The notes under the pieces were generated by a model that did not search any database, was not told the DNA's origin, and worked only from the letters and a program-made list of their open reading frames with translations. This document shows positions 10,213 through 28,920 of a stretch of 64,000 nt of DNA, one piece after another; the first letter of the stretch is position 1; every line of letters starts with the position of its first letter. Source of the DNA: Candidatus Omnitrophota bacterium (GTDB lineage Bacteria; Omnitrophota; Omnitrophia; Omnitrophales; Aquincolibacteriaceae). Position numbers and translations under genes: made by a program. Location: contig JAUYMS010000047.1 in the NCBI GenBank assembly GCA_030698625.1, positions 12,210 to 76,209 of the forward strand, in the 5' to 3' direction.

Positions 10213-10315
10213 CTACGCAAAACAACCTTCCGTTTGATGAATTGCACGGCTCGTCGTGGCCAACCCCAGATGCCCCGCGCATACAGGCCAGCCAAACAAT
10301 CCTCTAGCGCCTCAA

Positions 10316-11005
10316 TCAACACACCATCTCGCGCCAATCGCACCGTTGTTGCAAGGCATTAATGTTTGCTACCGCCGTACGTGCGGCAAATAAGATGATG
10401 TTCTGACAATAGTAGCTCTCTATGTTCTCGTCGTGCCATATTTGCTTTCGCACATAATCACTCGCTATATAACCGGCACGACGAAAGCGCTCAACCCAAT
10501 AGTCCTGCCACTGCTCATTAACATGCAACACACCGCCTTGGTTCGGGACAGCGGCCGAAAAAGCAATAACATCGGCGTGCTTCACTAATGACTTTACAAA
10601 TAAATCCGCCGCATCCGGCGGCAAATGTTCCGCTACCTCAAACGACCACGCTAGATCGAAGTGTCTCCCAAGATCAAAACCACTTTTCAGATCGCATGCC
10701 AGAAAACACTCTGACGAAATATCTAGACTGCCTTTTTCTACCCAGTCGCCATCGATCCCCATAATTTCGTTAACGCCACACTGCTTCGCCGCCGCAAGCC
10801 ACAAACCTGTGCCGCAACCCACATCCAGAACAGACTTAGGCCTGATGAGCGCTACCAGCAAGGGAACGATCTTTGCAGCTGCACGCAAACGGTTCTCATG
10901 GGCATCGCCATAAAATGCCTTGGAATACAATTTTCGCTCAACGCACGAATCATTGCGTGTGTTCATCGCGTGAATCCTCCCTTTCTTAATGCGACGTTGC
11001 ATCAT
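10316..11005 (-). CDS. Class I SAM-dependent methyltransferase
   Basis: Motif I is VLDVGCGTGLWL and motif II-like is DLAWSFEVAEHL. Confidence 0.7.
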   Translation of the reverse strand: MMQRRIKKGRIHAMNTRNDSCVERKLYSKAFYGDAHENRLRAAAKIVPLLVALIRPKSVLDVGCGTGLWLAAAKQCGVNEIMGIDGDWVEKGSLDISSECFLACDLKSGFDLGRHFDLAWSFEVAEHLPPDAADLFVKSLVKHADVIAFSAAVPNQGGVLHVNEQWQDYWVERFRRAGYIASDYVRKQIWHDENIESYYCQNIILFAARTAVANINALQQRCDWREMVC

Positions 11006-12027
11006 CGATTGGCTTGGAAGTCACACCACTTAGCTGCTGAAATATCCCATTCCGGGATATCATCGGCCATAAAGTGCTTTAACTCCGTCAGGTCCGGTGA
11101 CACTGCTGACATTACGCGCACGTAATTCGCGGCGGAATAGCGAATTTCCCCGAATACCTTTCGAGTCCGCTGTTTGCCTTCATTGTAGACCTTAAAATTG
11201 CCCCCATCGTATTGCCGTGACTCGACACCCAGAAATTCAAACACATTCTTGAGAGTCGCGGGCACGTTCTTAACAAAGCGTTCAAAGACGATCACTTTAA
11301 AGCTTGCCTTTGGGAAGAAGCGCAGATAATGATTCAGTTGCGCAAAGTAGCGACTTAACTCAACGTATGCTCCAGGGTTCTCTGCAAGCTCCTCGTTGAA
11401 TGGCCGCTGCGTTAAGGCTACCGGTCTCCCACCGTTAAATGGCTGCTTCGCCACCGCTGCGTGATGGCGGTACTGAGCCACGATGCGTGCCAGCGGATTT
11501 CGTACCAGATAGATAAATTTCATGTCGGGACACAGCTTGCTAAGCCGCGCCGGAACTTCGCTGCCCATATAAGGGGCTTTTGTATAGAATGTTGATGACT
11601 CTCCAAACATTTTTTCACCGTGGTAGCCATTTAGCAAGGTACGCAGTAATTGGTCGTTGGACAGCCCCATCTTAATCTGATTCGCCGACATTGAAGAAAC
11701 GATCGGTATCTCGTTTGAATAGTCCAGAAAGAGGCCCGGCTCCTTAAGGTTTGGTGTATAGATGTCATCATGGCGTCCTAAGTAGTAATGCAGACTTGAT
11801 GTTCCGGACTTCATTGCGCCGATAATCAGAAAATTCGGCAGCACTGTCCGCAGCCGCAGTTGCTTAAGCTCAAGACACCGGCCGCGCCCCAAGTATATTC
11901 TTGAGGGTGAAAGGAACGGATTGCGGTGGTAACGAGCACTCTTGTTAGCAAAAGAGGCTGCGGAGCATTGCACAAGATTGACCTTTGGTGTTGTCCAGAA
12001 TGCATCATCTCTATTTCTAGTAGCCAT
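11002..12027 (-). CDS. Sulfotransferase-domain protein (PAPS-dependent)
   Basis: The 5'-PSB-like motif is PNFLIIGAMKSGTSSL. The 3'-PB-like motif is YLVRNPLARIVAQY. Confidence 0.7.
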   Translation of the reverse strand: MATRNRDDAFWTTPKVNLVQCSAASFANKSARYHRNPFLSPSRIYLGRGRCLELKQLRLRTVLPNFLIIGAMKSGTSSLHYYLGRHDDIYTPNLKEPGLFLDYSNEIPIVSSMSANQIKMGLSNDQLLRTLLNGYHGEKMFGESSTFYTKAPYMGSEVPARLSKLCPDMKFIYLVRNPLARIVAQYRHHAAVAKQPFNGGRPVALTQRPFNEELAENPGAYVELSRYFAQLNHYLRFFPKASFKVIVFERFVKNVPATLKNVFEFLGVESRQYDGGNFKVYNEGKQRTRKVFGEIRYSAANYVRVMSAVSPDLTELKHFMADDIPEWDISAAKWCDFQANR

Positions 12028-12033
12028 AATTGG

Positions 12034-13506
12034 TCACACTCCCACCGCACCGAACAATAAGCGCTTTACTTCATTGCTCGCCGTTCTGTCTATGCATTGA
12101 AACACCGTAACATGCGCCACAACCGCTGTGATTCCATAGGCAACAAGATGCGCGAAGCTGTCGAGCGACACGGAAGCCGATACGCCGACGTCCCGCAAAA
12201 GAAGCCGCATCACTATTATGGTTGTGCTCAAGGCTGCAGCCGCAAGAAACGATGGCAACAGCTGCGCCAGAAACTCGCACCATTGAAACGCTACGATCCG
12301 CCGAATGCGCGTCAAATAAAGCGGAACCATGACAGCGTGCATGATTAACAATGTCATCGCTGCGCCCGTGACACCAAATTTCAACGTCATTCCGATAAGC
12401 ACGGGAACTTTAATGACTAGATGAATCAGGCCGAGCTGATAACTATATTGTGGATTCCCGCTTCCCTGGAAGATCGAACCCGACGCAGCGATCATGGGCG
12501 ACAATATCTGTACCAACCCCATAACCTGAATCAGCGGAACAATAGGCAGCCATTTTTCACCATACAAGGCCAATGTAATCTCATGCGCAAGTAAGATGAC
12601 AACAAGGCTGAACGGTATCGTAAAAATCGAGGCGAGTTTGACTGTTTTCATGTAAGCCCGTTTCAGGGCGGCCGGATCGTCCTGGATCGCCGAATAGGCC
12701 GGAAACATTACGCGCGATATCAGCTGCGCAAAGTGAGTATTTACGAAATTAGTCATGTTGCGGGCAAGTGCGAAATAGCCGAGGAGTGTGGCACCCAGCA
12801 TTTTACCGACAACGATAATTCCGATCTGGCTGTTGATGAACCAGATGACATTCAGGCCCACCAGAAACTTGCCAAAGTGAAAGAGCTCCTTCGCGAGCTT
12901 CGGGTCGAACTGAAACTTCAGCCGGTAGCCGGACAACCACCAATTCATGGAAGTCATAACTATCTGTTTGGCGATGTACGCCACAACGAGGCTCCACACC
13001 GTGGGGCTAATCATCACGAGGGCTATCGCACAAAGCGAATTTGTGATCGAACTGACCAGCTCAGTGACCGCGGTTACCTTAAAGCGCATGTTCTTGACGA
13101 GCAATGACAGCGGAACTTTGCCGAGGCAGCTCATGATGAAGACCACCCCAAGCGCCCGCACGATCGATCCGACTTCGGGGTTATTGAAGAACTTCCCTGC
13201 CAGCGGGGCTGCAATGAAGCAAATTGCGAACATCGTGATGCCCATCGCCTGCAGCATGAAAAAGGCTGTGTGCTGCATGGCTTCGGGCGCGTCTCTTTTC
13301 TGGACGAGGCCGGCATCGAGGCCCATCGACTGGAACACGGCAAGACCGTCGATGGCGACGAATGCCATCGCGAAGATACCGAAGACCGACGGCTCGAGAA
13401 TGCGCGCCAGCACGGCAAAGGTCGCCACCGAGATGACCTTCTGGGCGACCTTGTTGATGACCTGCCACTTCACGCCTGATACTGTTTTTTCTTTTAGTGT
13501 TTTCAT
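12034..13506 (-). CDS. wzx: Wzx-type oligosaccharide flippase (MOP/polysaccharide biosynthesis protein family)
   Basis: 490 aa, about 12-14 predicted TM segments. The N-terminus (KWQVINKVAQKVISVATFAVLARIL) is typical of Wzx/PST proteins. Confidence 0.7.
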   Translation of the reverse strand: MKTLKEKTVSGVKWQVINKVAQKVISVATFAVLARILEPSVFGIFAMAFVAIDGLAVFQSMGLDAGLVQKRDAPEAMQHTAFFMLQAMGITMFAICFIAAPLAGKFFNNPEVGSIVRALGVVFIMSCLGKVPLSLLVKNMRFKVTAVTELVSSITNSLCAIALVMISPTVWSLVVAYIAKQIVMTSMNWWLSGYRLKFQFDPKLAKELFHFGKFLVGLNVIWFINSQIGIIVVGKMLGATLLGYFALARNMTNFVNTHFAQLISRVMFPAYSAIQDDPAALKRAYMKTVKLASIFTIPFSLVVILLAHEITLALYGEKWLPIVPLIQVMGLVQILSPMIAASGSIFQGSGNPQYSYQLGLIHLVIKVPVLIGMTLKFGVTGAAMTLLIMHAVMVPLYLTRIRRIVAFQWCEFLAQLLPSFLAAAALSTTIIVMRLLLRDVGVSASVSLDSFAHLVAYGITAVVAHVTVFQCIDRTASNEVKRLLFGAVGV

Positions 13507-13878
13507 ATTTGTCGGGTTTTGAGATCCTTCGCTTCGCTCAGGATGACAGCGGTAAACCTTTTTAAAAGCTGGTACTTAATTAGATAGAACTTTCCCGCTT
13601 TTGGGAGTCATAAATTTTTTGGTACAAATGTGTTAAAGCATACCCGGTGAATCACTTACATTCAAACCGATACCGTTTGCGATCTAGCACCGGCAGTCAA
13701 GTCTATGTTTTCCTCCTCTTTTCTGTTTGATCTTATGCTATTGATAATTCGTGTCGCATAGCGTCCTGCTGCCGGACGACCCGATAGTCCTCCCGGTGAA
13801 GCGCCGGTTGAATCATCGATTCAAGCTCGCAGCCGCGATTACACTTTTTTCCAACGCGTCCCACGATACCGGGCATAA

Positions 13879-14568
13879 TTAGGCCTCCTTTCCCGGGGCC
13901 ACATGGCTCAAGCGCAACACATTGGCATGACTGGTAAGACCAACCATCAGCACGCCCACACCTACTAATTCCATCAATTCCTCGGCCATCAAACGCGATG
14001 CACGCCAGAACATCGGCGTATCTTCCGTAATAAGATTCGTTAACATCTCGACGCCCACAGCCCCCCCAAAAAATAGCAGCAAGCCGCTTAACGCACATAT
14101 CGCGCCCGAGCCGTTACTGTCAAAACTTCGTTTTAACTCGGGGAAAACCCACACAACAAAAGCCAAAATAAACGGGCCGAAGAGGACGGGCCACGATGTT
14201 CTGTGCAACGCATCAAGAAACCACGCCGGCATAAAGTTACGCTCGATCACTCCCGAGAAGTTCTCGTGAAACATCACAACCTCATCGCATGACATAAACG
14301 CCAGGGCGCCCGCGGTCAAGAACCACGCCTGCCCTATGTCCCTGCCTGCGGAATTCCCTGCGGTCACAAATGCCGCATGCGCCGCCATAAAAAACATCAC
14401 GCTTGAAACCCATGTGGGGATATTCCCCTCGCGCTGCAAATTGAATAATCTCTCAAGCTGCCAACTCCGCCCATCCAGGAGCAATGCCAGCAAGTGCATC
14501 CCCGCCAATATCAGAATGACTAACCCAACGAGTGCTAACGCACTAGACTGTTTCATTGACGCCTTCAT
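13879..14568 (-). CDS. Small polytopic membrane protein of unknown function (paralog family member 1 of 3)
   Basis: Hydrophobic throughout. Shares ...RD.R.AW... and C-terminal EELMELVGVGVLMVGLTSH blocks with the proteins at 23865..24671 and 29482..30126. Confidence 0.5.
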   Translation of the reverse strand: MKASMKQSSALALVGLVILILAGMHLLALLLDGRSWQLERLFNLQREGNIPTWVSSVMFFMAAHAAFVTAGNSAGRDIGQAWFLTAGALAFMSCDEVVMFHENFSGVIERNFMPAWFLDALHRTSWPVLFGPFILAFVVWVFPELKRSFDSNGSGAICALSGLLLFFGGAVGVEMLTNLITEDTPMFWRASRLMAEELMELVGVGVLMVGLTSHANVLRLSHVAPGKEA

Positions 14569-16276
14569 TTGCTACTGCGTTTCTTGCAACATGCGACAGT
14601 CGGCATACCAAAATGTCATTCGGCGACGCGCCCGCCGTTTCGAATGTCGCCGCGCTTCCGTTCTGTCCATACCATATCGCCTCGCGCAGAAGAAATATCC
14701 TCACCGCGGCCGGCACCGACATCGGATCGTCGAAGTCAATTCGCTTAAGAAGAAACCATAGGTCCCGGCCCTCATAGTGTGACCGGAGTTTTGCGATATC
14801 AGCCGGCGAGCTGAGCATTTCGACAAACTGTTTCCGGTTGTAAAGGGGCAGCACCCTTCCCGGCCGCGGCGCATCGCTTCCGCTCTGGATATGGTTCGCG
14901 CTAAAAATCGGCTCGCGGAATCCGTAAAAGCGGGCCTCTTTGGAATGAGAGACGACCACCGGATTACCCGCGGCGATTCTGCCGCCGAATAGTTCATGCG
15001 CCCGGCCCCAGGCCGGCCTCACCTCGCGGCGCACATAATCGACGGACGTCAGGGCCCACGGATGCGCCGTCGGAACAAGCACGGCAATGCCCAGGCAGGC
15101 CAGGGAGCCGCTTATGGCAAAACGCCGCACGCGGCCGCGCGATGCCCACGCCTGCTTCATGCATTTCGCCACCGTGGCCGCCGTTGCCGCGATCGCCGGG
15201 GCCAGAGCAATATAAAAAAATGTCAGGTCGAACAAGATATACCGTTCCTCTTTTCGCAGAAAGACGAAGGTCTTCAGAAGAAACGGAACAGCAAAAAGAC
15301 ACACAACAAAAGCTCCGCGACGGCCGTATTTCCAGCACGCGTAGACGGCCGCCAACGGATAGAGCGTAAAGAGAACCGGATAGAGGTCTTCCATGGTCCA
15401 CTTGTAAAACAACACCCGGCTGACCGCCCACGAATGCAAAGGGACAGAGAAGGCCTCGGCGGCCATCTTCGTAATAATTCCGGGCTTGAGGACCGCCCCG
15501 ATGACCGCCAGCGCAAGGGTCACGATAAGAATTGCCGAATACTTCGAACTGAAGGGGCCCAGCTTCTCTTCACCGCGAGCCGCCAGGAACATCAGCGCGA
15601 TATACGCAAAGAATGCCGGCACAAAAAAGATAACCAGTTTATGCAATACCAATGAGATACAGAATATTGCGACTGCGCCGAACGCGAGCCCTGTCTGCTT
15701 TAGCCGGCTGCCGGCATATCCCCCCTCAAACAGCCGGAAAGCGAGATACGCGAAGACCGTATACAAAAGCTGAACGAGGGTGTACATGCGGCACTCCCGC
15801 GACATTTTGACACAGAGCGGCGCAAAGGCGATAAGAAGCGCTGCGGCGATCGCGGCCCCGGTTCCAAACCATCGGCGGGTCATCCAGAAGCCAAAGACGA
15901 TGACAGCAACGCCGAAGACAACGGCCGGCATTCTGGCCGCGGTCTCACTGACACCAAAAGTCCTGAACATTCCTGCGATAAGATAGGTGAAAGGCAATGC
16001 CCGCGTATACTCGTAGCCCCCGGGCAGAGTCGGTGAGCCTGTCTCGATCAGCGACTTTGCCGCAAAGACATGGTAAAGCTCGTCGGACCAGAAATTGCTG
16101 ACGCCCAGCTGGTACATGCGCACGCACAGTCCAGCGGCCAAGATAAGCGCCAAAGTCAACCAAACGAGTACACGCCCCCTACTTTTACTTACAGCCGGTT
16201 GTGCAGGGATGTCCAGCACATTGCGCGGCCCGCCGCGGCGGTCGATCCCTCTTTCCAATAGTGCTGAATGGCTCAT
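14543..16276 (-). CDS. GT-C fold glycosyltransferase (family 39/83, ArnT/PMT-like; polyprenyl-phosphate-sugar dependent)
   Basis: N-terminal FWSDELYHVFAAKSL (DE motif loop) followed by more than 10 TM helices. Length 577 aa. Confidence 0.6.
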   Translation of the reverse strand: MSHSALLERGIDRRGGPRNVLDIPAQPAVSKSRGRVLVWLTLALILAAGLCVRMYQLGVSNFWSDELYHVFAAKSLIETGSPTLPGGYEYTRALPFTYLIAGMFRTFGVSETAARMPAVVFGVAVIVFGFWMTRRWFGTGAAIAAALLIAFAPLCVKMSRECRMYTLVQLLYTVFAYLAFRLFEGGYAGSRLKQTGLAFGAVAIFCISLVLHKLVIFFVPAFFAYIALMFLAARGEEKLGPFSSKYSAILIVTLALAVIGAVLKPGIITKMAAEAFSVPLHSWAVSRVLFYKWTMEDLYPVLFTLYPLAAVYACWKYGRRGAFVVCLFAVPFLLKTFVFLRKEERYILFDLTFFYIALAPAIAATAATVAKCMKQAWASRGRVRRFAISGSLACLGIAVLVPTAHPWALTSVDYVRREVRPAWGRAHELFGGRIAAGNPVVVSHSKEARFYGFREPIFSANHIQSGSDAPRPGRVLPLYNRKQFVEMLSSPADIAKLRSHYEGRDLWFLLKRIDFDDPMSVPAAVRIFLLREAIWYGQNGSAATFETAGASPNDILVCRLSHVARNAVANEGVNETV

Positions 16277-16351
16277 GAGTCCTGCACTTCCTTTTCCGCG
16301 ACCGCAAGCAGCGACAAACCGGCCCGCATGGGTACATGTTTTTCCAAGGCT

Positions 16352-17098
16352 TCAACGGTCATTTCTGCCCTTCCTCACCACGAAGGCCTGGCCATGAACC
16401 TCGTATTCAAACAATGGTTCAAACGACAAGCTCGGAATTTCCGATAAAAATTGTTTCAATGCGCTTCGCTGCCCGGCTCCTGACTCCTCGCTAAAAGCCC
16501 GCCAATCGTCAAACAGGACAATTGACCCGCCCTCCAAATAAGGCGCAAGCCAGCGCATTGACTCAATCGTGGACGTGTGCAAGTCGCAGTCCAAAAGTGC
16601 TACAGCCACCCTCTTAAACGGGTACTTTTCCCGCAGTTCCTCGGTAAGAGAGTCTTCATAGAAGCCTTCGATCAAATGGGTGCGAGTCCAATCGACCCCA
16701 TTCTTTTCCAGAAATCGGGTGACTTGCTTCCGGGAGCAGGAAAACTGACCCTTGAAAAAGATTCCGTCACCTATTACTTTGTCTATGTCTTCAAGCTCGG
16801 GCAGCCCCTTGAACGAATCGAAGGCATAAAAGTTGGGCCCCTCAAGACCCAACTCACCGCACACCTTTTGTGCCCACCAATACGTATATCCTTTAAATAT
16901 GCCGAACTCGTAATAGTCGCCGATATCCCTGCCACGCTTTTCCGCCGCGTAGCGCAGTGCTCTGCTCACACCGGCCGGCGCTCCGGGGTTTCCCGGCTTG
17001 AAGGACCGATTGATCGCGTGATAGGCCTTGGATCCCAATGCATACAACGGCGGGTATCGGGCGACAACCTTCTCTACCATTTTCTTAAGAGACCGCAT
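16352..17098 (-). CDS. TylF/MycF-family O-methyltransferase
   Basis: YYEFGIFKGYTYWW (E-x-G-x-x-x-G SAM motif) and LLDCDLHTST (DxDxY metal motif) are characteristic of the macrocin O-methyltransferase family. Confidence 0.65.
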   Translation of the reverse strand: MRSLKKMVEKVVARYPPLYALGSKAYHAINRSFKPGNPGAPAGVSRALRYAAEKRGRDIGDYYEFGIFKGYTYWWAQKVCGELGLEGPNFYAFDSFKGLPELEDIDKVIGDGIFFKGQFSCSRKQVTRFLEKNGVDWTRTHLIEGFYEDSLTEELREKYPFKRVAVALLDCDLHTSTIESMRWLAPYLEGGSIVLFDDWRAFSEESGAGQRSALKQFLSEIPSLSFEPLFEYEVHGQAFVVRKGRNDR

Positions 17099-18062
17099 AG
17101 CTGCGCCTCACCTTGAGATTCAATCCACTTTTCAGATACATGAACACCCCCGGCAAATTGCCTATGCCAATGAGCAGCCTCATTAGAAGGGCAACGGCAA
17201 ATATCGCCGGCGCGGCCGCCCCCGCGATATTGAGAAAATAAACCAACGCGCCCTCCCGCACCCCCCAACCCGCGATCGAAATCGGGAGCATGCTCACCAA
17301 CAACGCCGGAGGAACTAAAATCGCGCAGTCGGCAAAACTTAAACTCATCGAAGTGCTCTTAGCCAAACTCCATACAATCAGAACCCGCATCAACTGGTTC
17401 ATTAGGGCCAGAGCAAACACGACTCCGAGAATACGGCCGTGCTCCTTGTAATCACACAGCGCCGAATAGGCCTCCCGAATCAATTTTATTCCCGGAAAAG
17501 CATTAAAGCGATTCAGGATTTTGTCGGCCAAATTCTGCAGTCCCGGCACTATGAGAAAAGCCACCATCGCCGCCACGGCAAAAGCCGGCGCGGCCATAAC
17601 AATCAGGACTTCATTGCGGCCCCACACGATTGCGGCCCATAGCGCGCCGACAAAAGCCGCAACCATCATGGACACCGCCCCGGTGATCCGGTCCATCGCG
17701 ACTGAGGAGACGGCTTCTGCATGCCGTCCGCTCGAAGCGCCCAAGCTATACATTCGAACAGCATCTCCACCCGCGGTCGCCGGCAAAAAGGATCCCAGAA
17801 AATTACTGACCCACACGCTCCACAATAAATGCCTGTAACCCACTTTTTCGCCTTTTGCCTCAATCAGCAACTGCCACTTATACGCGGTCAGAAAACGGAT
17901 CATAAGCACAGGAACCAGCCCGAGAGCAAAGATATCCCAACGGCAATCGGCAAAGACGCGGCCAATTTCGCTCCACTCGACTTTAGCGCTAAGCCAGAAA
18001 AGTATGGCGGCGCTAATAAAAGCGCGAACGATTGTTCCGCGAAGATTCCGTTTCTCGCTCAC
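17085..18062 (-). CDS. Flippase-like / LPG-synthase-TM (UPF0104) family membrane protein
   Basis: 325 aa, about 8 TM helices. The N-terminal LRGTIVRAFISAAILFWL...W pattern is typical of this family, which is often adjacent to glycosyltransferases. Confidence 0.5.
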   Translation of the reverse strand: MSEKRNLRGTIVRAFISAAILFWLSAKVEWSEIGRVFADCRWDIFALGLVPVLMIRFLTAYKWQLLIEAKGEKVGYRHLLWSVWVSNFLGSFLPATAGGDAVRMYSLGASSGRHAEAVSSVAMDRITGAVSMMVAAFVGALWAAIVWGRNEVLIVMAAPAFAVAAMVAFLIVPGLQNLADKILNRFNAFPGIKLIREAYSALCDYKEHGRILGVVFALALMNQLMRVLIVWSLAKSTSMSLSFADCAILVPPALLVSMLPISIAGWGVREGALVYFLNIAGAAAPAIFAVALLMRLLIGIGNLPGVFMYLKSGLNLKVRRSYAVS

Positions 18063-19246
18063 GTTACGACCTCGTCAAAAATAGATCCATCCGGGACAAG
18101 CACCTCATAGACGGCTCCAAGGGCGCCGGCATCATCTTCGTCTTCGGACGTTACATACGCTCTTGCTCTCGCACCCAGTGCCGCGGCAAGCTCTTTGTCG
18201 AGAGTCAGCCGGGCCAACGCATCCGCGAGTGCTTTCGTATCGCCGTCCTTTACGAGAAGGCCCGCATCACGCAATATCTGTCTTGTGCTCGTCGTGTCAA
18301 AACCCGCGACCGGCAGACCGCAAGCCATATAGGCATACAACTTACCGTTACCTTCGCTGCTTTCATGTTTGGGGCTCACCGCTACGTCCGCCGCATTCAA
18401 GTACGCCGGCAGATCTTCAAACCTCACTTGTCCGGTGAAGGTCACGTTCGCCGTCAAACCCATATCTTGGGCCTTGCTGCGATAATGCTGAACATTCGGA
18501 TAGCCTATAATCAGCGTGTGAAATGCATGTTTTTCACGGAGGATCCTCAAGGCCTCAAGCAAGGCATCGATTCCCTGGTACTCATTAAGGAGTCCGGCGT
18601 ACACAATCACAGGCATCTTCTCCGGGATTCCGTATCGCATTCTTATATGAAGGCCGTTTACTCCGGGGCGAAAATGCTCCGTATCCACACTGTCCACAGT
18701 ATGGGCAACAGGCACCGAACCGGTGTGCGGCTCTTCACTCAAGCGCTCCGCGCTATTCGCGGTGCTTGTAACAATCGCGTCCACGCGCATTTCAATGAAT
18801 TCCTCCAACCACGAGAAAAGACGGTAAAGCAGACCCCCGGCTCTCGCAAACTTGTGCGCCGCAATCTCGCCGGAAAGACTCCCTTGATAATCGAGTACCA
18901 ACGGAATCCGTTTGGACCCTCGAGCCAAGTAGGCAACGCAGGCGCCTTCATGCAAATGGGCATGAATCACATCGGGATTCCACGTTCTTATCCACTTCCG
19001 CGTCAGGGCCGTTAACATGACATCGATGTATATCTTGTGCCATGACGGGCCGGCCGCGAGCTTCCTATACCACGGCACCGGCCAGGTCCTGACCGTTTCG
19101 ACACCGTCAATATCCCGCCCAAGCGGGTAGGTGCATAAGACCACTTCATGCCCCTGCTCCCTAAGTGCAATGGCGGATCGATAGACGCGCACATGGCAGC
19201 CGCGGTCTGAAAAAAAAGGTGTCGGCACCACCATTAAGACCTTCAT
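18059..19246 (-). CDS. Glycosyltransferase family 4
   Basis: The N-terminal MKVLMVVPTPFF...GGCHVRVY GT4 N-domain and the C-terminal EGNGKLYAYMACGLPVAGFD signature. Confidence 0.75.
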   Translation of the reverse strand: MKVLMVVPTPFFSDRGCHVRVYRSAIALREQGHEVVLCTYPLGRDIDGVETVRTWPVPWYRKLAAGPSWHKIYIDVMLTALTRKWIRTWNPDVIHAHLHEGACVAYLARGSKRIPLVLDYQGSLSGEIAAHKFARAGGLLYRLFSWLEEFIEMRVDAIVTSTANSAERLSEEPHTGSVPVAHTVDSVDTEHFRPGVNGLHIRMRYGIPEKMPVIVYAGLLNEYQGIDALLEALRILREKHAFHTLIIGYPNVQHYRSKAQDMGLTANVTFTGQVRFEDLPAYLNAADVAVSPKHESSEGNGKLYAYMACGLPVAGFDTTSTRQILRDAGLLVKDGDTKALADALARLTLDKELAAALGARARAYVTSEDEDDAGALGAVYEVLVPDGSIFDEVVT

Positions 19247-20253
19247 GCCGTCACCATTTCACGCGTCTCGCTCTTCAGTGAACCTTCCGCGCGATAGGAC
19301 GTTGCTGTCTTGCTCAAGCCCTCGGCCAAACTAACTCGCGGTGCATACCCCAATCTGTCACGCGCCTTACTGATGTCGAATGCCCGGTTGTGAGTAAAAA
19401 AATCAACGCGGCGCTTATAAAGCGGCGGCCTCAATCCGAGCGGCAAGCACACCGCCTCGCACAAGGCTGCGGCGGCATAGAACGGCCACACGGGCAGATG
19501 CAGCCGCGGCACGCGAACGCCGAGGATGTGAGCAATTTTTCCGGCAAGGTCATTGAGAGTCACGTAGTTTTCATCTCCGAAAAAGAAGGCTTCGCCCGCT
19601 GCCCGGTCACTTTCAGCGCATTGGATCAACCCCTCAACCAAATCCGTCACATACACCATATGGTAGTAAGTCTTCCCGCTCCCGATCATGACAAAATATC
19701 CGCGCTGAATACTGCCGAAGAGCTTCACAAACCTCTCTTCCCCGGGCCCGTAAATCGCTGCCGGGCGGGCGATGCTCATCGCCAGGCCGCGCTCGGCAGA
19801 GGCTTTCCAGACTCTTCCTTCCGCCAATAACTTGGTTCGCTGATACTCATCGCCGGGATTGAACGGCGAGTCCTCATTGCCCGGTATTTCAGCGACCGCC
19901 CCGTGCACTCCCATCGTGCTGCAATGCACCAGCCGCTTCACGCCATGATTGAGACACGCGTCGATAATATTCTGCGTACCCTCGACATTAACGTTCCAGT
20001 AATCCTCTTTCGTCGCAGACTGGTCACGATAGAGCGCGGCGAGGTGAAAGACTTTCTCGCAACCGCCGACTGCCCTGTCCACCAGAGCGGCGTCGCGGAT
20101 GTCGCCCACCTCAAGCTCCACTCCCTTCGCGATGAGTTTGGTCACACCGCTCTTTCTGCGCACAAGCGCCCTGACCCGGTGCCCGCGCTCAACGAGGGCA
20201 TCAACGAGATATCCTCCCGTAAATCCTGTGGCGCCGGTTACGAGTATCTTCAT
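19243..20253 (-). CDS. NAD-dependent epimerase/dehydratase (extended SDR)
   Basis: MKILVTGATGFTGGYLV Rossmann motif. I place the start at the ATG at 20253, which overlaps the TGA of the upstream gene (ATGA). The ORF-track start at 20373 is probably an over-extension. Confidence 0.8.
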   Translation of the reverse strand: MKILVTGATGFTGGYLVDALVERGHRVRALVRRKSGVTKLIAKGVELEVGDIRDAALVDRAVGGCEKVFHLAALYRDQSATKEDYWNVNVEGTQNIIDACLNHGVKRLVHCSTMGVHGAVAEIPGNEDSPFNPGDEYQRTKLLAEGRVWKASAERGLAMSIARPAAIYGPGEERFVKLFGSIQRGYFVMIGSGKTYYHMVYVTDLVEGLIQCAESDRAAGEAFFFGDENYVTLNDLAGKIAHILGVRVPRLHLPVWPFYAAAALCEAVCLPLGLRPPLYKRRVDFFTHNRAFDISKARDRLGYAPRVSLAEGLSKTATSYRAEGSLKSETREMVTA

Positions 20254-21965
20254 GCTCCCACGCCCTCCATGATCTTTTCCGCCGCCGGGACCTGCTCCGG
20301 AATCATGATTCCCCGCTTCTCGTAAAGAGCTTTCACTTCGTTGACCTCTCGGCGCTTCCTCTCTGAATCCCACAGCAACTCATCACCCATGACCTCGGCG
20401 CAAACCTGAAGCGCATCGTCACTTGGGTATCCCATCGTGCCCAGGCCCGTCCGCCGAAAGACCACGTCGGCCAGCTTTACGGCCATTTCGTCTCTGACTG
20501 CGTAGACAATGTCGGCCTTCGTCACACTTTTTGAGCCCGGAATAGCCTCGCCCCACGCATAGTCATGCGCGATCAGGTGCAAAACTTCCATATACAGGCT
20601 GCCGTGGCGTTCGATAAGACGCTCGATCTGATCGCGGCTCATACCCCACGCCCGTCTGGCCCTCTCCGACTCCAAATATTCATCGATATTCTGGATATCT
20701 GCTCCGATGAGCGGTGTCACCGCGCTGCGAGACGCGGACACTTTCATGCCGATTTTTCCGAACACGCGGTCAATCACCTTTTCGACGACTGCCCGGGCCG
20801 TCGTGTATTTGACCCCGACAACGCTCAGAAGGCCCTCGATGTTGTCTGTCTTCTTGTGGTCCCAAATCTGATCATTGCGATCCACCTCACCCTTAGAACA
20901 ATCGCTGCGTGAATTGCTCGCCGGCAGCAAGCCTGTATTGGCATACGAGATATCCGAGCGCTGTAAATTCAACGTCGGGTATGCGGCTTTTAAATCCGCC
21001 AGGAACCGGTCCAGGTCTTCTGCGCTCACCTCGCGGCGCTCCGGCCTGTCGCTATATTTTGAATAGTCCGTCCCGACGATGCTTCCGGTTCTGTGGGTCG
21101 TCGCAAAGTAGTATCGTTTGCCGGTTCTTTCCGGGGCGGTGCTCGGCGCCGCCAGCGCAAAGCCCGGCGTCAATCGGCGGTTGAATACGAGATTCACGGC
21201 TTGCGCATATTTGACGCGGGGACGCCGCGTGATGTACCCCAAGCTTATCAGCAGATCCTGGACCCACGGCCCTGTCGAATTAAGCACACACCGCGCGCGT
21301 ACCTTTAATTTTTTGCCCGTGATTTGATCATGGGCCTCGACACCAGTCACGCGCCGGTTGTCCATTATCAAATTAGTCGCTTCAACATAATTGACGGCTA
21401 CGGCACCCCAAAACACGGCTGTCTTGATAAACGCTAACGTGAGGCGCTCCGGTTCTATAATTTCACCGTCATACCATACGGCCGCACCCGTCTGCCCTTC
21501 TGAAACCGCGCCAACGGTTTGTGAGTACTCGCCGTTTGTCATAAAGCGATTTGACGGAATCTTTCGGCTATCGGCTTCAATACCCGCGTTCCGCTTGCGG
21601 CCCATGCGATTATGCAGTTTCAGAGCCGTCTTCACACCCGCCCTGCCTCTAAGTCCCTTGCCGAAAACGGGCATGACACATTTCAACGGCTTCACCAGAT
21701 GCGGGGCTATCCGCATCCACACCGATCTTTCTTTGATTGATGAACGAACCCGGCGCAGGTCACCGTGCTGAAAGTATCTGAGTCCGCCGTGAATGATGCG
21801 CTGTGACTCTGCGCTCATTTCGCCGCCGAAGTCTGCCTTATCAATCAATGCCACAGATAGACCTCTCGACGTAGCTTCCCATGCCGCAACCGCGCCGTAG
21901 ATTCCGCCGCCTACGATTAATAGGTCATATTCCTTTGTTGTCAGATCAGATACCGTTCGTTTCAT
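20250..21965 (-). CDS. FAD-dependent oxidoreductase, GlpD/GlpA (glycerol-3-phosphate dehydrogenase)-like
   Basis: DLLIVGGGIYGAVAAWE...RIIHGGLRYFQHGDLRRV closely parallels the N-terminus of GlpD. Length 571 aa. Confidence 0.65.
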   Translation of the reverse strand: MKRTVSDLTTKEYDLLIVGGGIYGAVAAWEATSRGLSVALIDKADFGGEMSAESQRIIHGGLRYFQHGDLRRVRSSIKERSVWMRIAPHLVKPLKCVMPVFGKGLRGRAGVKTALKLHNRMGRKRNAGIEADSRKIPSNRFMTNGEYSQTVGAVSEGQTGAAVWYDGEIIEPERLTLAFIKTAVFWGAVAVNYVEATNLIMDNRRVTGVEAHDQITGKKLKVRARCVLNSTGPWVQDLLISLGYITRRPRVKYAQAVNLVFNRRLTPGFALAAPSTAPERTGKRYYFATTHRTGSIVGTDYSKYSDRPERREVSAEDLDRFLADLKAAYPTLNLQRSDISYANTGLLPASNSRSDCSKGEVDRNDQIWDHKKTDNIEGLLSVVGVKYTTARAVVEKVIDRVFGKIGMKVSASRSAVTPLIGADIQNIDEYLESERARRAWGMSRDQIERLIERHGSLYMEVLHLIAHDYAWGEAIPGSKSVTKADIVYAVRDEMAVKLADVVFRRTGLGTMGYPSDDALQVCAEVMGDELLWDSERKRREVNEVKALYEKRGIMIPEQVPAAEKIMEGVGA

Positions 21966-22930
21966 TACTGTCCAATGACCTCCTCAATGCCAACGTCCTC
22001 AAAATCCCTGGTCCGTGAGTAGACAATCATTTCACCGATCAAGCCGATCGAGATAAACTGCACGCCCATAACAATCAAAAGAATGGCGAGCAGCATAATC
22101 GGCCGGTCTGCCATGCCCTCTCCGAATGCGAACCGCTCAAACACCAAGCCGACATTCATGGCAACTCCTACACCTGCCGAAAATAGCCCGACGCCTCCGA
22201 AGAATCTGAGCGGTTTTTCGTTGAAGCGCGTAATAAAAAGGAGATTGAGAATATCGAGCACCCTTCTCACATACGAAGCCGGCCCATACACCGTCACGCC
22301 CTGCGGTCTCTCCCGCCGCGAGAGCGGTATGCCCGTAACGCGAAAGCCCTTTCGCTCCGCCAGCACGGGCAGGAAACGGAAAAAGTCGCCATAAAGAGGC
22401 ACCGCATTCAATATGGAGCGCCGAAAGATTTTGAGGGTTGAGTTCAGATCGTGAACTTCGCTGCCCGTTAACTTTCGAGTGCACCAGTTAAACAGCTCAG
22501 ACTGCCACTGATTGACCTTCGGCTGACCGCGCCAGCTGCGCACCCCGTTAACAAAGTCATAACCTTCACGCATGCGCGCGATCAGTTGGCGTATGTCGTC
22601 TGCCCTGAACTGGCCGCCCGCTTCCACGATCATGACCCAGCGCCCCCGCATCGCGCCCCGCGCAGTATTCATAGAACTTGCCTTTTCGGCCTTCGGCATG
22701 AGCCTGACCACCCTGGCTTCCACTTCCGGATCCAAATCGATCTCATCACTGGGTTTCGCCAGCACCAGGAATTCATACGACAACCCTGACTCGGCCGCCA
22801 CATGATCCAGATCACGCCACAGATTCCGCAGCACACGCGGCCCGTTGGTTAAGATAATGCAAATCGTCAGGTCGATCGTCTCTGAAAACTGCTCTGACAA
22901 TGTGCCTAGCCCTCTCTCTTTAACCTGCAT
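21965..22930 (-). CDS. Polyprenyl-phosphate glycosyltransferase (GT2, DPM1/ArnC/GtrB-like) with C-terminal TM helices
   Basis: The GT2 catalytic domain is followed by two C-terminal TM helices (FFGGVGLFSAGVGVAMNV...LLAILLIVMGVQFISIGLIGE). Confidence 0.65.
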   Translation of the reverse strand: MQVKERGLGTLSEQFSETIDLTICIILTNGPRVLRNLWRDLDHVAAESGLSYEFLVLAKPSDEIDLDPEVEARVVRLMPKAEKASSMNTARGAMRGRWVMIVEAGGQFRADDIRQLIARMREGYDFVNGVRSWRGQPKVNQWQSELFNWCTRKLTGSEVHDLNSTLKIFRRSILNAVPLYGDFFRFLPVLAERKGFRVTGIPLSRRERPQGVTVYGPASYVRRVLDILNLLFITRFNEKPLRFFGGVGLFSAGVGVAMNVGLVFERFAFGEGMADRPIMLLAILLIVMGVQFISIGLIGEMIVYSRTRDFEDVGIEEVIGQ

Positions 22931-23810
22931 AATTTCGCTCCCGGGAAAAGTGAAATAGCCACTCCGCCATTAGCCCGCAGCTCACCAGCGTAAAAGCCCC
23001 AAAGGCGTAAAGAAACGAAGCGCCGTAATAGGTCATGCCGCCTTGCAGTGCGGTTAAGACCGCAAAAAACATGAAGGGCGCGGCGGCGAGGAAAAAATAG
23101 ATCCGCGGTTCTTCACGAAACCGCGCAAAAAGCGCCAAGGCGATGAGGTCAAGAAACACTTTGAAAGTGCGCGAGAGTCCGTACTTCGAGTTTCCGCGCA
23201 CTCGGGGCCGATGGTTCACTTCGATCTCTGCGATGCGGAAGCCCTTGAGCGACAAAAGGAAAGGGATGAAGCGATGTCTTTCTGAATAAAGCGAAATACT
23301 GCCGAGCGCACTCGCCCGATAAAGCTTCAGAGAGCAACCGGAGTCATGCAATGAGAGACCGGTGATCAAAGCTAAAATCCAGTTTGCAATACGCGACGGC
23401 AGCGTTCGCGTCAGGCTATTATCTTTACGATTCTTGCGCCAGCCGCTGACCACGTCATAGCCTTCCTGCGCCTTCGAAATCAGTTTCGGCAAATCGGCCG
23501 GATCATTCTGCCCGTCGCCGTCCATGGTAAGGATCCAATCGCCCTGCGCCTGTTTAATGCCCGCTGCCAGCGCACGGGTTTGCCCGAAATTGGTCCTTAA
23601 ACGGACGAGTTTTAGCTCCGGAGAGTGCTTTTGCAGGGATTCGAGTTCCTGCCAGGTGCGGTCCTTCGACCCGTCGTCGACGGCTATGATTTCAAACGGT
23701 ACGCCGTGGCTCCGAAGTTCTCCCAGCGAAGTCTGGATAACAGGGCGTGCGTTCTCTGCCTCATTATAGAAAGGAATGACTTGTGATATGAAATGGATTG
23801 AGTTCTTCAC
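22920..23810 (-). CDS. Polyprenyl-phosphate glycosyltransferase (GT2, DPM1/ArnC/GtrB-like), tandem paralog
   Basis: VIPFYNEAEN...IIAVDDGSKDRT...TMDGDGQNDP plus C-terminal TM helices. Confidence 0.7.
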   Translation of the reverse strand: MKNSIHFISQVIPFYNEAENARPVIQTSLGELRSHGVPFEIIAVDDGSKDRTWQELESLQKHSPELKLVRLRTNFGQTRALAAGIKQAQGDWILTMDGDGQNDPADLPKLISKAQEGYDVVSGWRKNRKDNSLTRTLPSRIANWILALITGLSLHDSGCSLKLYRASALGSISLYSERHRFIPFLLSLKGFRIAEIEVNHRPRVRGNSKYGLSRTFKVFLDLIALALFARFREEPRIYFFLAAAPFMFFAVLTALQGGMTYYGASFLYAFGAFTLVSCGLMAEWLFHFSRERNYAG

Positions 23811-23864: not shown

Positions 23865-24671
23865 TTATTTGCTGATTTTTTCTTGTTTTTTCGAGGGCAC
23901 AGGCTCGTCTTCTTCAGCGCCCTCGCCGATAAGCCTGAGTGCCAACCGCGCGGACGATTCCGGCACCGGCATCCCGAAGGACTCTTGCACCGTTAACAAT
24001 CGAACCGCCAACCGAAAAAGCTGCCGCTCATGGATCGCAAAACCCGTTAATATCGCGGCAGCTCCAATCATCTGTAATGTTTCAAGGGTAACAACCATGT
24101 ATCCCAGGCCGACTTCGACTAATTCTAATTCCTGGTAGAGATGCAGGAACGTACGCACCAGCGAACAGCCGAAGAGAAGGACAAAACCCGGAAGGGCGAG
24201 TGTTCTGCCTTCGCGTGTATCATCAAAGGCATCGCTCATGGGCAGCATCAGGAGAAGAATAATGCCCGTCTTAAAAAGCGCGAGAGGAACTGAAAATGTT
24301 CCGACCGCATAATCGAAGGAAGTCAAGACCAGGAAAATTGCCGTAATCGACCAGGCACGAGTGTCACGCACCCGTGTTGCCAGTCTTGCCATTCGGCAGC
24401 TTACCACACTGGAAATCACCAAGAGAGCAGCGATAAACCAAGCCGCGCCTGAGCCCCCGCCGTAAATCCCTGAGGCCCATTCGGCAACTTTACTTCCGCC
24501 ATCACCGACCCAAACATAAGCACCGGCGGCCACAATGACCGACCCGACGATTCCAAGAGCCGCAAAGATCGGACTCAACGGCAAAAATTCTCCTACCGCA
24601 TCAAGCATTAAACTTTTGGATTCCCGTTTTTTCACGAGCTTTGGTTCCTTTCTTAGGGATTGGTGTGCCAA
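23865..24671 (-). CDS. Small polytopic membrane protein of unknown function (paralog family member 2 of 3)
   Basis: AAWFIAALLVISSVVSCRMARLATRVRDTRAW and LETLQMIGAAAILTGFAIH match the blocks in members 1 and 3. Confidence 0.5.
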   Translation of the reverse strand: MAHQSLRKEPKLVKKRESKSLMLDAVGEFLPLSPIFAALGIVGSVIVAAGAYVWVGDGGSKVAEWASGIYGGGSGAAWFIAALLVISSVVSCRMARLATRVRDTRAWSITAIFLVLTSFDYAVGTFSVPLALFKTGIILLLMLPMSDAFDDTREGRTLALPGFVLLFGCSLVRTFLHLYQELELVEVGLGYMVVTLETLQMIGAAAILTGFAIHERQLFRLAVRLLTVQESFGMPVPESSARLALRLIGEGAEEDEPVPSKKQEKISK

Positions 24672-27909: not shown

Positions 27910-28920
27910 TTAGTTATTATTATTACCGGCATTGCGGAAGTAGCCGCCTTCGCTCGCCGCATTTCCCCAGCCTAGCTCATAGACTGAGGCCGCTTGAAAT
28001 AGCGGGCCCGTAATGCGCGAGAACGCGTTGACAAACTTGTCGAAATAGCGCTGTTTCACGAGAATGGTGTCGCCCGGCTCCAAGAAGAAGTCCTCGGCCG
28101 AGTCACCTTTCTCGAGGAGTTTCGAGAGGTCAATTTTTTTCTCCGACGCATTCCCGCTATCGGTAAATTCCGACGGACGAATTACGTAAACCCGCTTCAG
28201 CGAGCCGTCTGCGCGGATGAGCCCTGCAGCCACCACGGCTTCTTTAACCGTGATATTGTCGCCTTTCATCGCGTATTTACCGGGACGGCTGACATACCCA
28301 AATACATAGACAGCCTTGCTGCGGTATTCTGAGATCATGACGGCTACTTCGGGATAACGGACATACTCGCGAAGCCGCTCTACCAATTCGGCTTTTAGCT
28401 GTTCCTTGGTCTTGCCGACTGCCTTCACGTCACCTACGAAGTTGTACTGCACATTGCCCTCCGGATCGATAACGAACCGCCCGGAGAAGTCAGGCTGATT
28501 TCTGACGATGATGGTGACAACGTCGTCTATGCCCAGCGTATAATCGGATCCTTCACCAATGATTTCGATGTATGGAGAATAATGCGAATAGGGAGAAACC
28601 TCGGAGGCGAAGTAAGGATCCTGGCCTTGCTGCGGCGCTCCCGCCTGCCCCATTCCGGGAGATCCCGCATACTGAACGGGAGCCGGGCCCTGAGAGTAAG
28701 GTGAGGTCATAAAGCTAGCATAGGGAGAAAATTGCGTTTCATAATTCGTGCCGTATTGCACTTGCACGGCAGAGGTCTGCCCCGGCTGTGCATTTGATGG
28801 CCCCATATCCTGGCTATTTCCCTGATAGGACAAGGGCGGGGCAAAAGCCTTGGGCGTAAATACGCAGATCGCCAGTGCGATCAAAAGGGCTTGTTTGGTT
28901 AAATGATGATATTTAGTCAT
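27910..28920 (-). CDS. wza: Polysaccharide export protein (Wza-like, Poly_export + SLBB) with N-terminal Q/P/Y/S-rich low-complexity region
   Basis: A signal peptide, then LGIDDVVTIIVRNQPDFSG...YNFVGDVKAVGKTKEQL...VYVFGYVSRPGKY (PES + SLBB pattern). Confidence 0.7.
   Translation of the reverse strand: MTKYHHLTKQALLIALAICVFTPKAFAPPLSYQGNSQDMGPSNAQPGQTSAVQVQYGTNYETQFSPYASFMTSPYSQGPAPVQYAGSPGMGQAGAPQQGQDPYFASEVSPYSHYSPYIEIIGEGSDYTLGIDDVVTIIVRNQPDFSGRFVIDPEGNVQYNFVGDVKAVGKTKEQLKAELVERLREYVRYPEVAVMISEYRSKAVYVFGYVSRPGKYAMKGDNITVKEAVVAAGLIRADGSLKRVYVIRPSEFTDSGNASEKKIDLSKLLEKGDSAEDFFLEPGDTILVKQRYFDKFVNAFSRITGPLFQAASVYELGWGNAASEGGYFRNAGNNNN

Follow-up and report, generated by a model that had tools for sequence, protein, structure and literature searches.

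A GlpD-fold flavoprotein in an exopolysaccharide locus of an Omnitrophota bacterium and its possible part in the remodelling of lipid-linked sugars

Three-component systems of periplasmic glycosylation have GtrA/GtrB/GtrC and ArnC/ArnEF/ArnT as their classical relatives. The mycobacterial decaprenyl-phosphoribose 2'-epimerase DprE1/DprE2 consists of a VAO-type flavoenzyme (DprE1) and a classical short-chain dehydrogenase/reductase (SDR; DprE2). The locus described here is compared with both, and it lies in a 64-kb stretch of a Candidatus Omnitrophota metagenome-assembled genome (MAG), which was analysed as a whole and is called the window. At its center is a block of eight co-directional, mostly overlapping genes on the minus strand (14543-23810), one of which encodes a flavoprotein of the GlpD fold. 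For Citrobacter youngae O1/O2, an SDR genetically determines whether the side chain is ribofuranose (Ribf) or xylofuranose (Xylf), and it was proposed that this SDR converts undecaprenyl phosphate (Und-P)-linked Ribf to Und-P-Xylf prior to flipping (Kelly et al. 2024, PMC11127046). Homologs of DprE1/E2 accompany arabinofuranose (Araf) systems (PMC11127046). Hence, the concept of auxiliary epimerases acting on Und-P-sugars has a precedent, though the flavoprotein family found here is a different one. An earlier reading of the window from its letters and open reading frames (the sequence-only reading) had suggested that the block remodels a lipid-linked sugar; the general idea has the precedent just named, and the substrate and the reaction stay suggestions. 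Two further sets of described genes share families with the block: for one of them, flipping by GpgF is so far a proposed activity (PMC12713373), and in the other, HpnL has not yet been assigned a function (PMC12324291).

In the order of transcription, the block comprises two family 2 glycosyltransferases (GT2a and GT2b), the flavoprotein, an extended SDR, a GT4 glycosyltransferase, an LPG_synthase_TM (UPF0104) protein, a TylF-type methyltransferase, and a GT-C glycosyltransferase. It is best explained as the central part of a cassette for polysaccharide decoration that is mobile and widespread. Tentatively, and as something possible that falls short of probable, it would be a three-component periplasmic glycosylation system in which the sugar on polyprenyl phosphate undergoes oxidation and re-reduction and is flipped only afterwards, making it a non-homologous analogue of DprE1/DprE2. 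This proposal was chosen as the most economical one, using every gene of the operon.

The flavoprotein and its substituted site

The flavoprotein (20250..21965, minus strand) matches the Pfam domains DAO (E=5e-36) and DAO_C (E=1e-22). Its AlphaFold model, with a predicted local distance difference test score (pLDDT) of 84.8 and a predicted template modeling score (pTM) of 0.88, matches GlpD/GlpO (PDB 2qcu, 3da1, 2rgh, and 2rgo) over its full length in Foldseek at TM-scores of 0.75-0.88 and with 23-31% sequence identity. The two-domain DAO + DAO_C fold is present together with the N-terminal GxGxxG site for flavin adenine dinucleotide (FAD); the FAD-binding β-α-β motif begins at residue 12, GGGIYG is found at residue 19, and there is no signal peptide. 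The best NCBIfam GlpD model, PRK12266, gives 211 bits against a cut-off of 360, meaning that the equivalog score is not reached. Aligned to GlpD of Escherichia coli, the family retains HGGLRY (R54), T270, K354, and R359 as well as the GxKxTTxR motif, and the position of R332 is mostly Lys. Two positions are replaced: H233 of E. coli GlpD (KGSHIVV) is Asn (KAMNLV; N258 in the window flavoprotein), and R317 (GVRPL, the GxRP motif) is Leu (GGLLP; L347). Among 79 family members, which were recovered from 80 genome loci, none carries His at the former or Arg at the latter position; herein, the H233 position is Asn in 74 members, and the R317 position is Leu, Val, or Ile in all but two. Both residues presumably line the substrate site of E. 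coli GlpD, whose sequence carries the expected residue types at all five positions considered. Strict GlpD residues, which the sequence-only reading had named as speaking against itself, are accordingly not found in any of the 79 members, and the structure prediction that it had proposed returns a full-length GlpD fold with the substituted positions N258 and L347.

Five GlpD proteins, namely those of E. coli and Thermus, two from Rubrobacter, and one from Shinella, retain both residues, as do PDB 3da1 and 2rgh. The gene for the Thermus protein adjoins glpK, and one of the Rubrobacter genes adjoins a glycerol kinase gene, while the second Rubrobacter copy and the Shinella copy lie near FGGY kinases. 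A homolog from an Antarctobacter heliothermus plasmid, 32% identical, carries the Asn/Ile variant and adjoins two GT2 genes and a gene of the O-antigen-ligase family; when a plasmid collection was searched for characterised close relatives, every match was at most 32% identical, and the Thermus, Rubrobacter, and Shinella controls are among these matches. Because the Asn/Leu-type signature is present in every member, including stand-alone ones and the Antarctobacter homolog, and is absent from the glycerol-context controls, it follows the family and not the context. By its sequence, the flavoprotein is a distinct clade and not canonical GlpD. A canonical GlpD subtype in loci without the cassette was considered and rejected, as the same signature occurs there. 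Fusions of the flavoprotein to partner domains were also considered; the longer proteins P0340 and P0387 carry low-complexity N-terminal extensions that look like mis-called starts and do not resemble domains.

In public annotation, the flavoprotein appears as glycerol-3-phosphate dehydrogenase/oxidase. Together with the full GlpD fold and the conserved HGGLRY and GxKxTTxR motifs, this annotation is what a housekeeping glycerol-3-phosphate dehydrogenase merely located in an exopolysaccharide (EPS) locus would show, yet such an enzyme is extremely improbable given the score of 211 bits under the NCBIfam cut-off, the replacement of His233 and Arg317 in every family member, the translational coupling to EPS genes, the synteny with SDR and GT4 genes across phyla, and the lack of glpK or glpF nearby. 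Public databases give the same label to hundreds of proteins of the clade, which comprises at least 150 clusters at 50% identity scoring at least 332 bits. On the evidence of residues and synteny, the label is probably wrong for the whole clade. In the literature searched, no description of a GlpD-like gene in polysaccharide clusters, or of this clade or cassette, was found.

Conserved neighbours across phyla

The 80 loci were obtained by scanning one genome per species and span Cyanobacteria, KSB1, Calditrichota, MAGs labelled 'Cytophagia', Spirochaetia, Nitrospirota, Chloroflexota, Planctomycetota, Elusimicrobiota, Proteobacteria, and a Methanoperedens MAG. Neighbours were counted in the 41 loci with full flanks (at least 8 kb on either side). 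The steady partners of the flavoprotein are the SDR and a GT4: an SDR ortholog is found in 35 of the 41 loci, downstream on the same strand in 34, and a GT4 gene precedes or adjoins the FAD gene in 31-34. The synteny of FAD and SDR genes extends over Cyanobacteria, KSB1, Calditrichota, Nitrospirota, Chloroflexota, Spirochaetia, Planctomycetota, Elusimicrobiota, and a Methanoperedens MAG. Other neighbours are a hexapeptide acyltransferase (29/41), S-adenosylmethionine (SAM)-dependent methyltransferases (23-24/41), Bac_transf (19/41), AsnB (18-19/41), YdjM (18/41), and LPG_synthase_TM (16-18/41). GT2a, counted at 40% identity or more (orthologs share 41-51%), is present in 17 loci, a distinct GT2b in nine, and the GT-C gene in none. 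Conservation of the block of two GT2 genes, FAD gene, and SDR gene, raised as a check by the sequence-only reading, is thus seen for the FAD-SDR pairing, but the four genes are no conserved unit, as GT2a occurs in about 40% and GT2b in about 20% of the loci and the GT-C encoded nearby in none.

The usual gene order is Wzc, SDR', Bac_transf, (UGD), GT4, AsnB, methyltransferase, FAD, SDR, LPG_synthase_TM, hexapeptide acyltransferase, AsnB, YdjM, GT2a, GT2b, and GT2. Cyanobacteria show the order GT2a, GT4, FAD, YdjM, c11, methyltransferase, and SDR, often followed by the hexapeptide acyltransferase, and some add a pyruvyl transferase, c28, and a Wzx-like gene. Orthologs of the Wzx and pyruvyl transferase of the window are found in none of the compared loci, and its sulfotransferase has a single match there at 27% identity. 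Hence, the linkage is specific to the core and does not extend to EPS loci generally.

The presence of Bac_transf, GT4, FAD, and SDR genes together in 19 of the 41 loci, with the FAD gene immediately following Bac_transf in L001 and L075 (L-numbers denote comparison genome loci), draws attention to the repeat unit built on undecaprenyl diphosphate (Und-PP). The flavoprotein and SDR could epimerise the reducing-end sugar installed by Bac_transf or a sugar added by GT4, with GT2a, GT2b, and GT-C being a separate side-chain system that shares the locus. GT2a is missing from over half of the 41 loci, and the geometric argument given below for glycosyl phosphates holds equally for the diphosphate. 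A priming glycosyl-phosphate transferase, of either the Bac_transf or the WecA type, was however not found anywhere within the 64-kb window, whose FAD gene is sandwiched between the GT2b and SDR genes and overlaps both. Nor are we aware that redox epimerisation has been described for glycans on Und-PP, and remodelling at this level is considered quite unlikely.

Among the proteins encoded next to the flavoprotein, c11 has about 280 amino acids (aa) and an N-terminal D-x-H-V-H-x-H motif; it is encoded in L088 (8204-8992, Antarctobacter plasmid pSMS3-1), L048 (12361-13212), and 17 other loci, and has no match in Pfam, NCBIfam, or PDB. Its gene is tightly linked to that of the flavoprotein, with an overlap of 4 nucleotides (nt) in Antarctobacter and a place between FAD/YdjM and methyltransferase/SDR in Cyanobacteria. 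In the pathway of the flavoprotein, c11 could act as a metal-dependent hydrolase or phosphatase. Flavoproteins of the Asn/Leu type also occur alone: in L016 (8843-9943) the gene adjoins that of a 6-phosphofructokinase and in L044 (7309-8760) that of a glycogen synthase, and no cassette genes lie within 10 kb of either. These neighbour assignments were read from the sequences only, without a Pfam scan.

EryB-type enzymes are said to oxidise a small phosphorylated polyol or sugar. If the flavoprotein did the same with a soluble substrate and the SDR reduced the product, the result would be a precursor of a non-standard residue or substituent, put in by GT4 or another enzyme. The tight linkage of the FAD gene to c11 with its HxH metal-hydrolase-like motif in Cyanobacteria and on the Antarctobacter plasmid, the YdjM-type hydrolases (both possible phosphatases), the lone family members near genes of central metabolism, and the retention of R54, K354, and R359 in the phosphate region would all suit this route. 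It is nevertheless unlikely: no nucleotidyltransferase and no LicD/TagF-type transferase that could activate or attach a polyol phosphate is found among the conserved neighbours, the anion-binding Arg of GxRP is lost family-wide, and the Shinella and Rubrobacter homologs, which do stand in sugar- or polyol-kinase contexts, retain His and Arg.

The operon in the window and the proposed pathway

The block lies within a single minus-strand EPS locus that covers about 1,500-28,900 of the window and further encodes Wza (27910-28920), a GNVR/Wzz protein, an AAA_22 and an AAA_31 ATPase, a Wzx flippase, a sulfotransferase, a methyltransferase, a pyruvyl transferase, five more GT2/GT4 proteins, and a GDSL protein, which brings the glycosyltransferases of the locus to at least nine. 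The genes named by the sequence-only reading are found on the minus strand at the positions and with the domains it had assigned (Pfam/NCBIfam); its gene list omitted the GT4 (18059-19246) and the TylF-type methyltransferase (16352-17098). The translational coupling of FAD and SDR that it had noticed is borne out by the sequence, where the junction gcATGAag contains the ATGA overlap. GT2b and FAD meet in TAATG, and GT2a and GT2b overlap by 11 nt, both likewise read from the sequence. By coordinates, the SDR/GT4 and GT4/LPG_synthase_TM junctions are overlaps of 4 nt and LPG_synthase_TM/TylF one of 14 nt. Because of these junctions, the seven genes from GT2a to the methyltransferase are one tightly coupled unit. 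The methyltransferase gene (16352..17098, minus strand; Pfam TylF, E=6e-14), whose product is of the type acting on sugars, ends the overlapping run, and the GT-C gene starts 75 nt past it in the same strand run.

Several other reading frames of the window may be recorded. The block is flanked at 23865-24671 and 13879-14568 by genes for predicted multi-pass membrane proteins of 268 and 229 aa, each with four hydrophobic segments and without a Pfam or NCBIfam match; the latter gene overlaps the GT-C gene by 26 nt. Composite glycosyltransferases are encoded at 3818-5785 (655 aa, two GT2 stretches) and 5769-8036 (755 aa, a GT4-GT2 fusion). The remainder of the window holds type IV pilus-like and housekeeping genes. 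A single open reading frame at 53288-54379 joins a CDP-alcohol phosphatidyltransferase (PgsA-like) to a PgpA phosphatidylglycerophosphatase domain and would be a fused two-step phosphatidylglycerol synthase, and a giant minus-strand open reading frame of 2,670 aa occupies 55681-63693.

GT2a (22920..23810, minus strand; Glycos_transf_2, E=1e-33) is a polyprenyl-phosphate glycosyltransferase of the ArnC/GtrB type. Its top NCBIfam match is ArnC with 155.6 bits against a cut-off of 529; hence, it is not an ArnC ortholog. It matches the ArnC structures 9hwj, 9bhc, and 8vxh with 144-146 bits and GtrB (sll0501) with 111 bits. The features of this type are present in full, namely a GT-A domain with DxD, its acidic motifs being intact (VDDGSKD at residue 44 and MDGDGQND at 96), and two C-terminal transmembrane helices (237-255 and 264-282). 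GT2b (21965..22930, minus strand) shows a weak Glycos_transf_2 match of 25 bits; it is ArnC-like in NCBIfam over residues 93-305 and matches ArnC structures from residue 91 on only (ArnC residues 88-300). The sequence-only reading had treated the two as paralogs with C-terminal transmembrane helices, and both are indeed ArnC-like with two such hydrophobic helices, but they are not equivalent: opposite the catalytic LDADLQ of ArnC, GT2b has VEAGGQ, and LAKPSDE stands where GT2a has VDDGSKD. Thus, the helices and the C-terminal half of GT2b are conserved and DxD is not. Orthologs of GT2b without DxD are found in eight other loci (L003, L004, L011, L012, L033, L043, L053, and L067), with FFxTRVRIN, TLGSFLQVE, or TLSPYFQVE at this position, whereas every adjacent GT2a keeps DGD. 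Judging from these replacements, GT2b is probably catalytically dead and acts as a non-catalytic partner to GT2a. Tetramers are formed by ArnC as well as by GtrB; together with the loss of DxD, this makes a conserved hetero-oligomer of active GT2a and inactive GT2b the simplest reading. Such a complex would be a testable case of a pseudo-enzyme partner within the ArnC/GtrB family.

The SDR (19243..20253, minus strand; Epimerase, E=7e-44; 3Beta_HSD, E=9e-35) carries the motifs of extended SDRs, with GATGFTGG at residue 7 (GxxGxxG), Ser112 in HCSTMG, and YQRTK at 137-141 (YxxxK). In NCBIfam, the models of lipid-acting reductases outscore those of nucleotide-sugar epimerases (HpnA 174 bits, OleD 162, and SdmB 138 versus GalE 69 and RmlB 67), so that the SDR is of the 3beta-HSD/HpnA/OleD-like kind. 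Its nearest relatives are numerous and 52-61% identical. Those of Acidobacteriota (52-54%) stand in GT4-SDR-GT4 clusters with LPG_synthase_TM genes and without a flavoprotein. Hence, SDR, GT4, and LPG_synthase_TM are the older module to which the flavoprotein was added. In two of these loci (L093 and L094, about 8800-15200), the conserved order is GT4, SDR, GT4, a protein of 637-655 aa without a Pfam match, and GT4, and genes for LPG_synthase_TM, a methyltransferase, and radical SAM proteins are divergently encoded alongside.

The GT4 (18059..19246, minus strand) is a GT-B glycosyltransferase with Pfam Glycos_transf_1 and Glyco_trans_4_4 domains; it is 54% identical to its counterpart in L001. 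With the GpgS model it reaches 57 bits where the cut-off is 480, and it is therefore no ortholog of GpgS. The LPG_synthase_TM protein (17085..18062, minus strand; Pfam E=2e-41) has at least seven hydrophobic segments and the flippase-like domain of NCBIfam. It is not among the established flippase families, and we regard it as a candidate lipid flippase. In 5-7 loci, the LPG_synthase_TM of the cassette forms a fusion protein with a hexapeptide acyltransferase; as an example, L078 encodes at 14733-16511 a protein of 592 aa with an N-terminal LPG_synthase_TM and a C-terminal hexapeptide-repeat acyltransferase part, an arrangement found in six other loci. These fusions are MprF-like in layout and therefore point to a substrate bound to a membrane lipid.

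The GT-C protein (14543..16276, minus strand) matches PMT_2 with 29.8 bits (cut-off 26.1). Its AlphaFold model has a pLDDT of 69.6, and the top 36 Foldseek matches in the PDB are all GT-C enzymes, with ArnT (5ezm/5f15) the best. The loop-1 DE motif is present as D65 E66, and W-x-DEL-x-HV is invariant in six homologs, which agrees with the ArnT/PMT-like assignment first made from the letters. Only five relatives are detectable among 5.8 billion proteins. Among the loci of these relatives, GT2a-like, GT2b-like, and GT-C genes are contiguous in L087, and in L084 a GT-C gene is followed by a 3beta-HSD-like SDR. In L053 (Elusimicrobiota), which came from the genome scan, genes for a GT2b-like protein, GT4, FAD, SDR, LPG_synthase_TM, and two GT-C proteins are found.

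With the acyltransferase fusions, and with pairs of GT4 and LPG_synthase_TM known from pathways of glucosaminyl-phosphatidylglycerol (GlcN-PG), the lipid could be a glycerolipid and not polyprenyl phosphate. Herein, GT4 would glycosylate a membrane glycerolipid, for instance phosphatidylglycerol or diacylglycerol at its head group, and the GlpD-like enzyme would recognise the glycerol-phosphodiester and, with the SDR, oxidise and re-reduce it or the attached sugar. LPG_synthase_TM would then flip the glycolipid, an activity likewise proposed for GpgSDF and HexSDF, and the flipped glycolipid would function as anchor, primer, or surface lipid. Glycerol phosphates are the sole known substrates of the DAO + DAO_C family, and the loss of one Arg suits a less charged phosphodiester. 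In the window, the genes for SDR, GT4, and LPG_synthase_TM follow one another with overlaps, GT4 accompanies the flavoprotein more steadily than GT2 does, LPG_synthase_TM genes accompany the acidobacterial GT4-SDR-GT4 clusters as well, and the 64-kb window has no priming transferase. In Pseudomonas aeruginosa, a GT4 and a putative UPF0104 flippase make and export GlcN-PG (PMC12713373). Against this stand the low GpgS score of the GT4 and the lack of a deacetylase, the usual place of the cassette among the polymer-synthesis genes Wzc, Bac_transf, and Wzx, and the ArnC-like GT2 pair and GT-C, whose presence in the operon would be left unexplained. The probability that we assign to a glycerolipid is low.

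For the preferred reading as a three-component system with oxidation and re-reduction, the substrate, the reaction, the oxidised position, and the order of steps would be as follows. GT2a, probably as a hetero-oligomer with GT2b, would load polyprenyl phosphate on the cytoplasmic side of the membrane with a sugar taken from a nucleotide donor. The flavoprotein, in which the FAD site and a portion of the phosphate site appear to be preserved and the presumed glycerol-3-phosphate site is without its His and Arg, would oxidise a secondary hydroxyl of the phosphate-linked sugar and pass the electrons to quinone or O2, and the coupled 3beta-HSD-type SDR would reduce the keto intermediate with NAD(P)H to the epimer. 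The TylF-type methyltransferase may O-methylate the sugar. The LPG_synthase_TM protein would flip the lipid-linked product, and the ArnT-like GT-C would move the flipped sugar onto the polymer outside the membrane. GT4 may lengthen the lipid-linked intermediate or else serve the main repeat unit. With its P-O-C1-C2(OH) arrangement, a glycosyl phosphate imitates P-O-C3-C2(OH) in glycerol-3-phosphate, which gives a rationale for recruiting the GlpD scaffold with the loss of one arginine.

A number of observations weigh against this pathway. Synthase, flippase candidate, GT-C, and redox pair are all present in the window and L053 only and are not conserved among the 41 loci. GT2a accompanies the flavoprotein in just 17 of these and GT-C in none; therefore, the function of the flavoprotein does not strictly depend on the GT2/GT-C route, unless these genes lie elsewhere in the genome. 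GT4 and Bac_transf are neighbours as frequent as, or more frequent than, GT2a, and 6-8 loci have the flavoprotein but none of the cassette. The nearest SDR relatives, those of Acidobacteriota, work without any such flavoprotein. Finally, the roles given to His233 and Arg317 are presumed ones.

Comparison with known systems

We would class the system as a neo-functionalised clade of the GlpD family that belongs to a decoration system of the three-component type. Extended to the whole clade, the proposal would be that a large, cross-phylum group of GlpD-fold proteins was recruited from the oxidation of glycerol-3-phosphate to that of lipid-phosphate-linked sugars and forms, with a dedicated 3beta-HSD-type SDR, a convergent and non-homologous counterpart of DprE1/DprE2, with epimerisation after attachment being a general route to rare EPS sugars from Cyanobacteria to candidate phyla and possibly archaea. 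This generalisation is doubtful. If true, it would be a second, independently evolved oxidase/reductase system for epimerisation on polyprenyl-phosphate sugars, so far known just from the DprE1/E2 drug-target pathway and one Citrobacter SDR; it could explain how unusual residues arise in the exopolysaccharides of Cyanobacteria and candidate phyla and would provide new enzymes for glycoengineering.

Compared with GlpD/GlpO, the flavoprotein has the same two-domain DAO + DAO_C fold, FAD motif, HGGLRY, and GxKxTTxR. It differs by the clade-wide replacement of His233 and Arg317, by the sub-cut-off score, and by an EPS context in place of glpK/glpF. The hopanoid trio of HpnA (SDR), HpnB (GT2), and HpnL (LPG_synthase_TM) has the same three families encoded together, and HpnA is the top NCBIfam match of the SDR. 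However, its 174 bits are far under the HpnA cut-off of 368, HpnB gives only 23 bits, and no squalene/hopene genes are nearby; to our knowledge, the functions of HpnA and HpnB are, like that of HpnL, unknown. GpgSDF of P. aeruginosa, which makes GlcN-PG, and HexSDF of Clostridioides difficile resemble the block in their contiguous GT4, sugar-modifying enzyme, and UPF0104/LPG_synthase_TM flippase candidate (PMC12713373). In contrast to them, the modifying enzymes here are an SDR and a flavoprotein with no deacetylase, the GT4 is not a GpgS ortholog, and the surroundings of the genes are a polymer locus with Wza, Wzc, and Wzx.

With DprE1/DprE2, the block shares the proposed logic in which a flavoenzyme would oxidise the hydroxyl beside a glycosyl phosphate, an SDR would reduce the product to the epimer, and a GT-C would use it. 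As the sequence-only reading had held, this is an analogy and not homology: the oxidase here has the DAO/GlpD fold, and the reductase is an extended, 3beta-HSD-like SDR. The three-component systems of Citrobacter youngae O1/O2 (ORF15-ORF14-ORF12 with the SDR ORF13, PMC11127046) are alike in that the genes for the synthase of the polyprenyl-phosphate sugar, for the candidate flippase, and for the GT-C stand together, in that an SDR is placed to alter the lipid-linked sugar before export, and in that a polymer from a separate pathway receives side-chain decoration. They differ in the synthase, which is here a GT2 of the ArnC/GtrB type with a dead paralog and is not dependent on phosphoribosyl pyrophosphate (PRPP), a PRPP-dependent synthase or UbiA-like phosphoribosyltransferase not being found in the locus. 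The flippase candidate is LPG_synthase_TM where three-component systems have MATE, SMR, or GtrA proteins, the GT-C is PMT_2/ArnT-like and not GT136, and a GlpD-fold flavoprotein is added.

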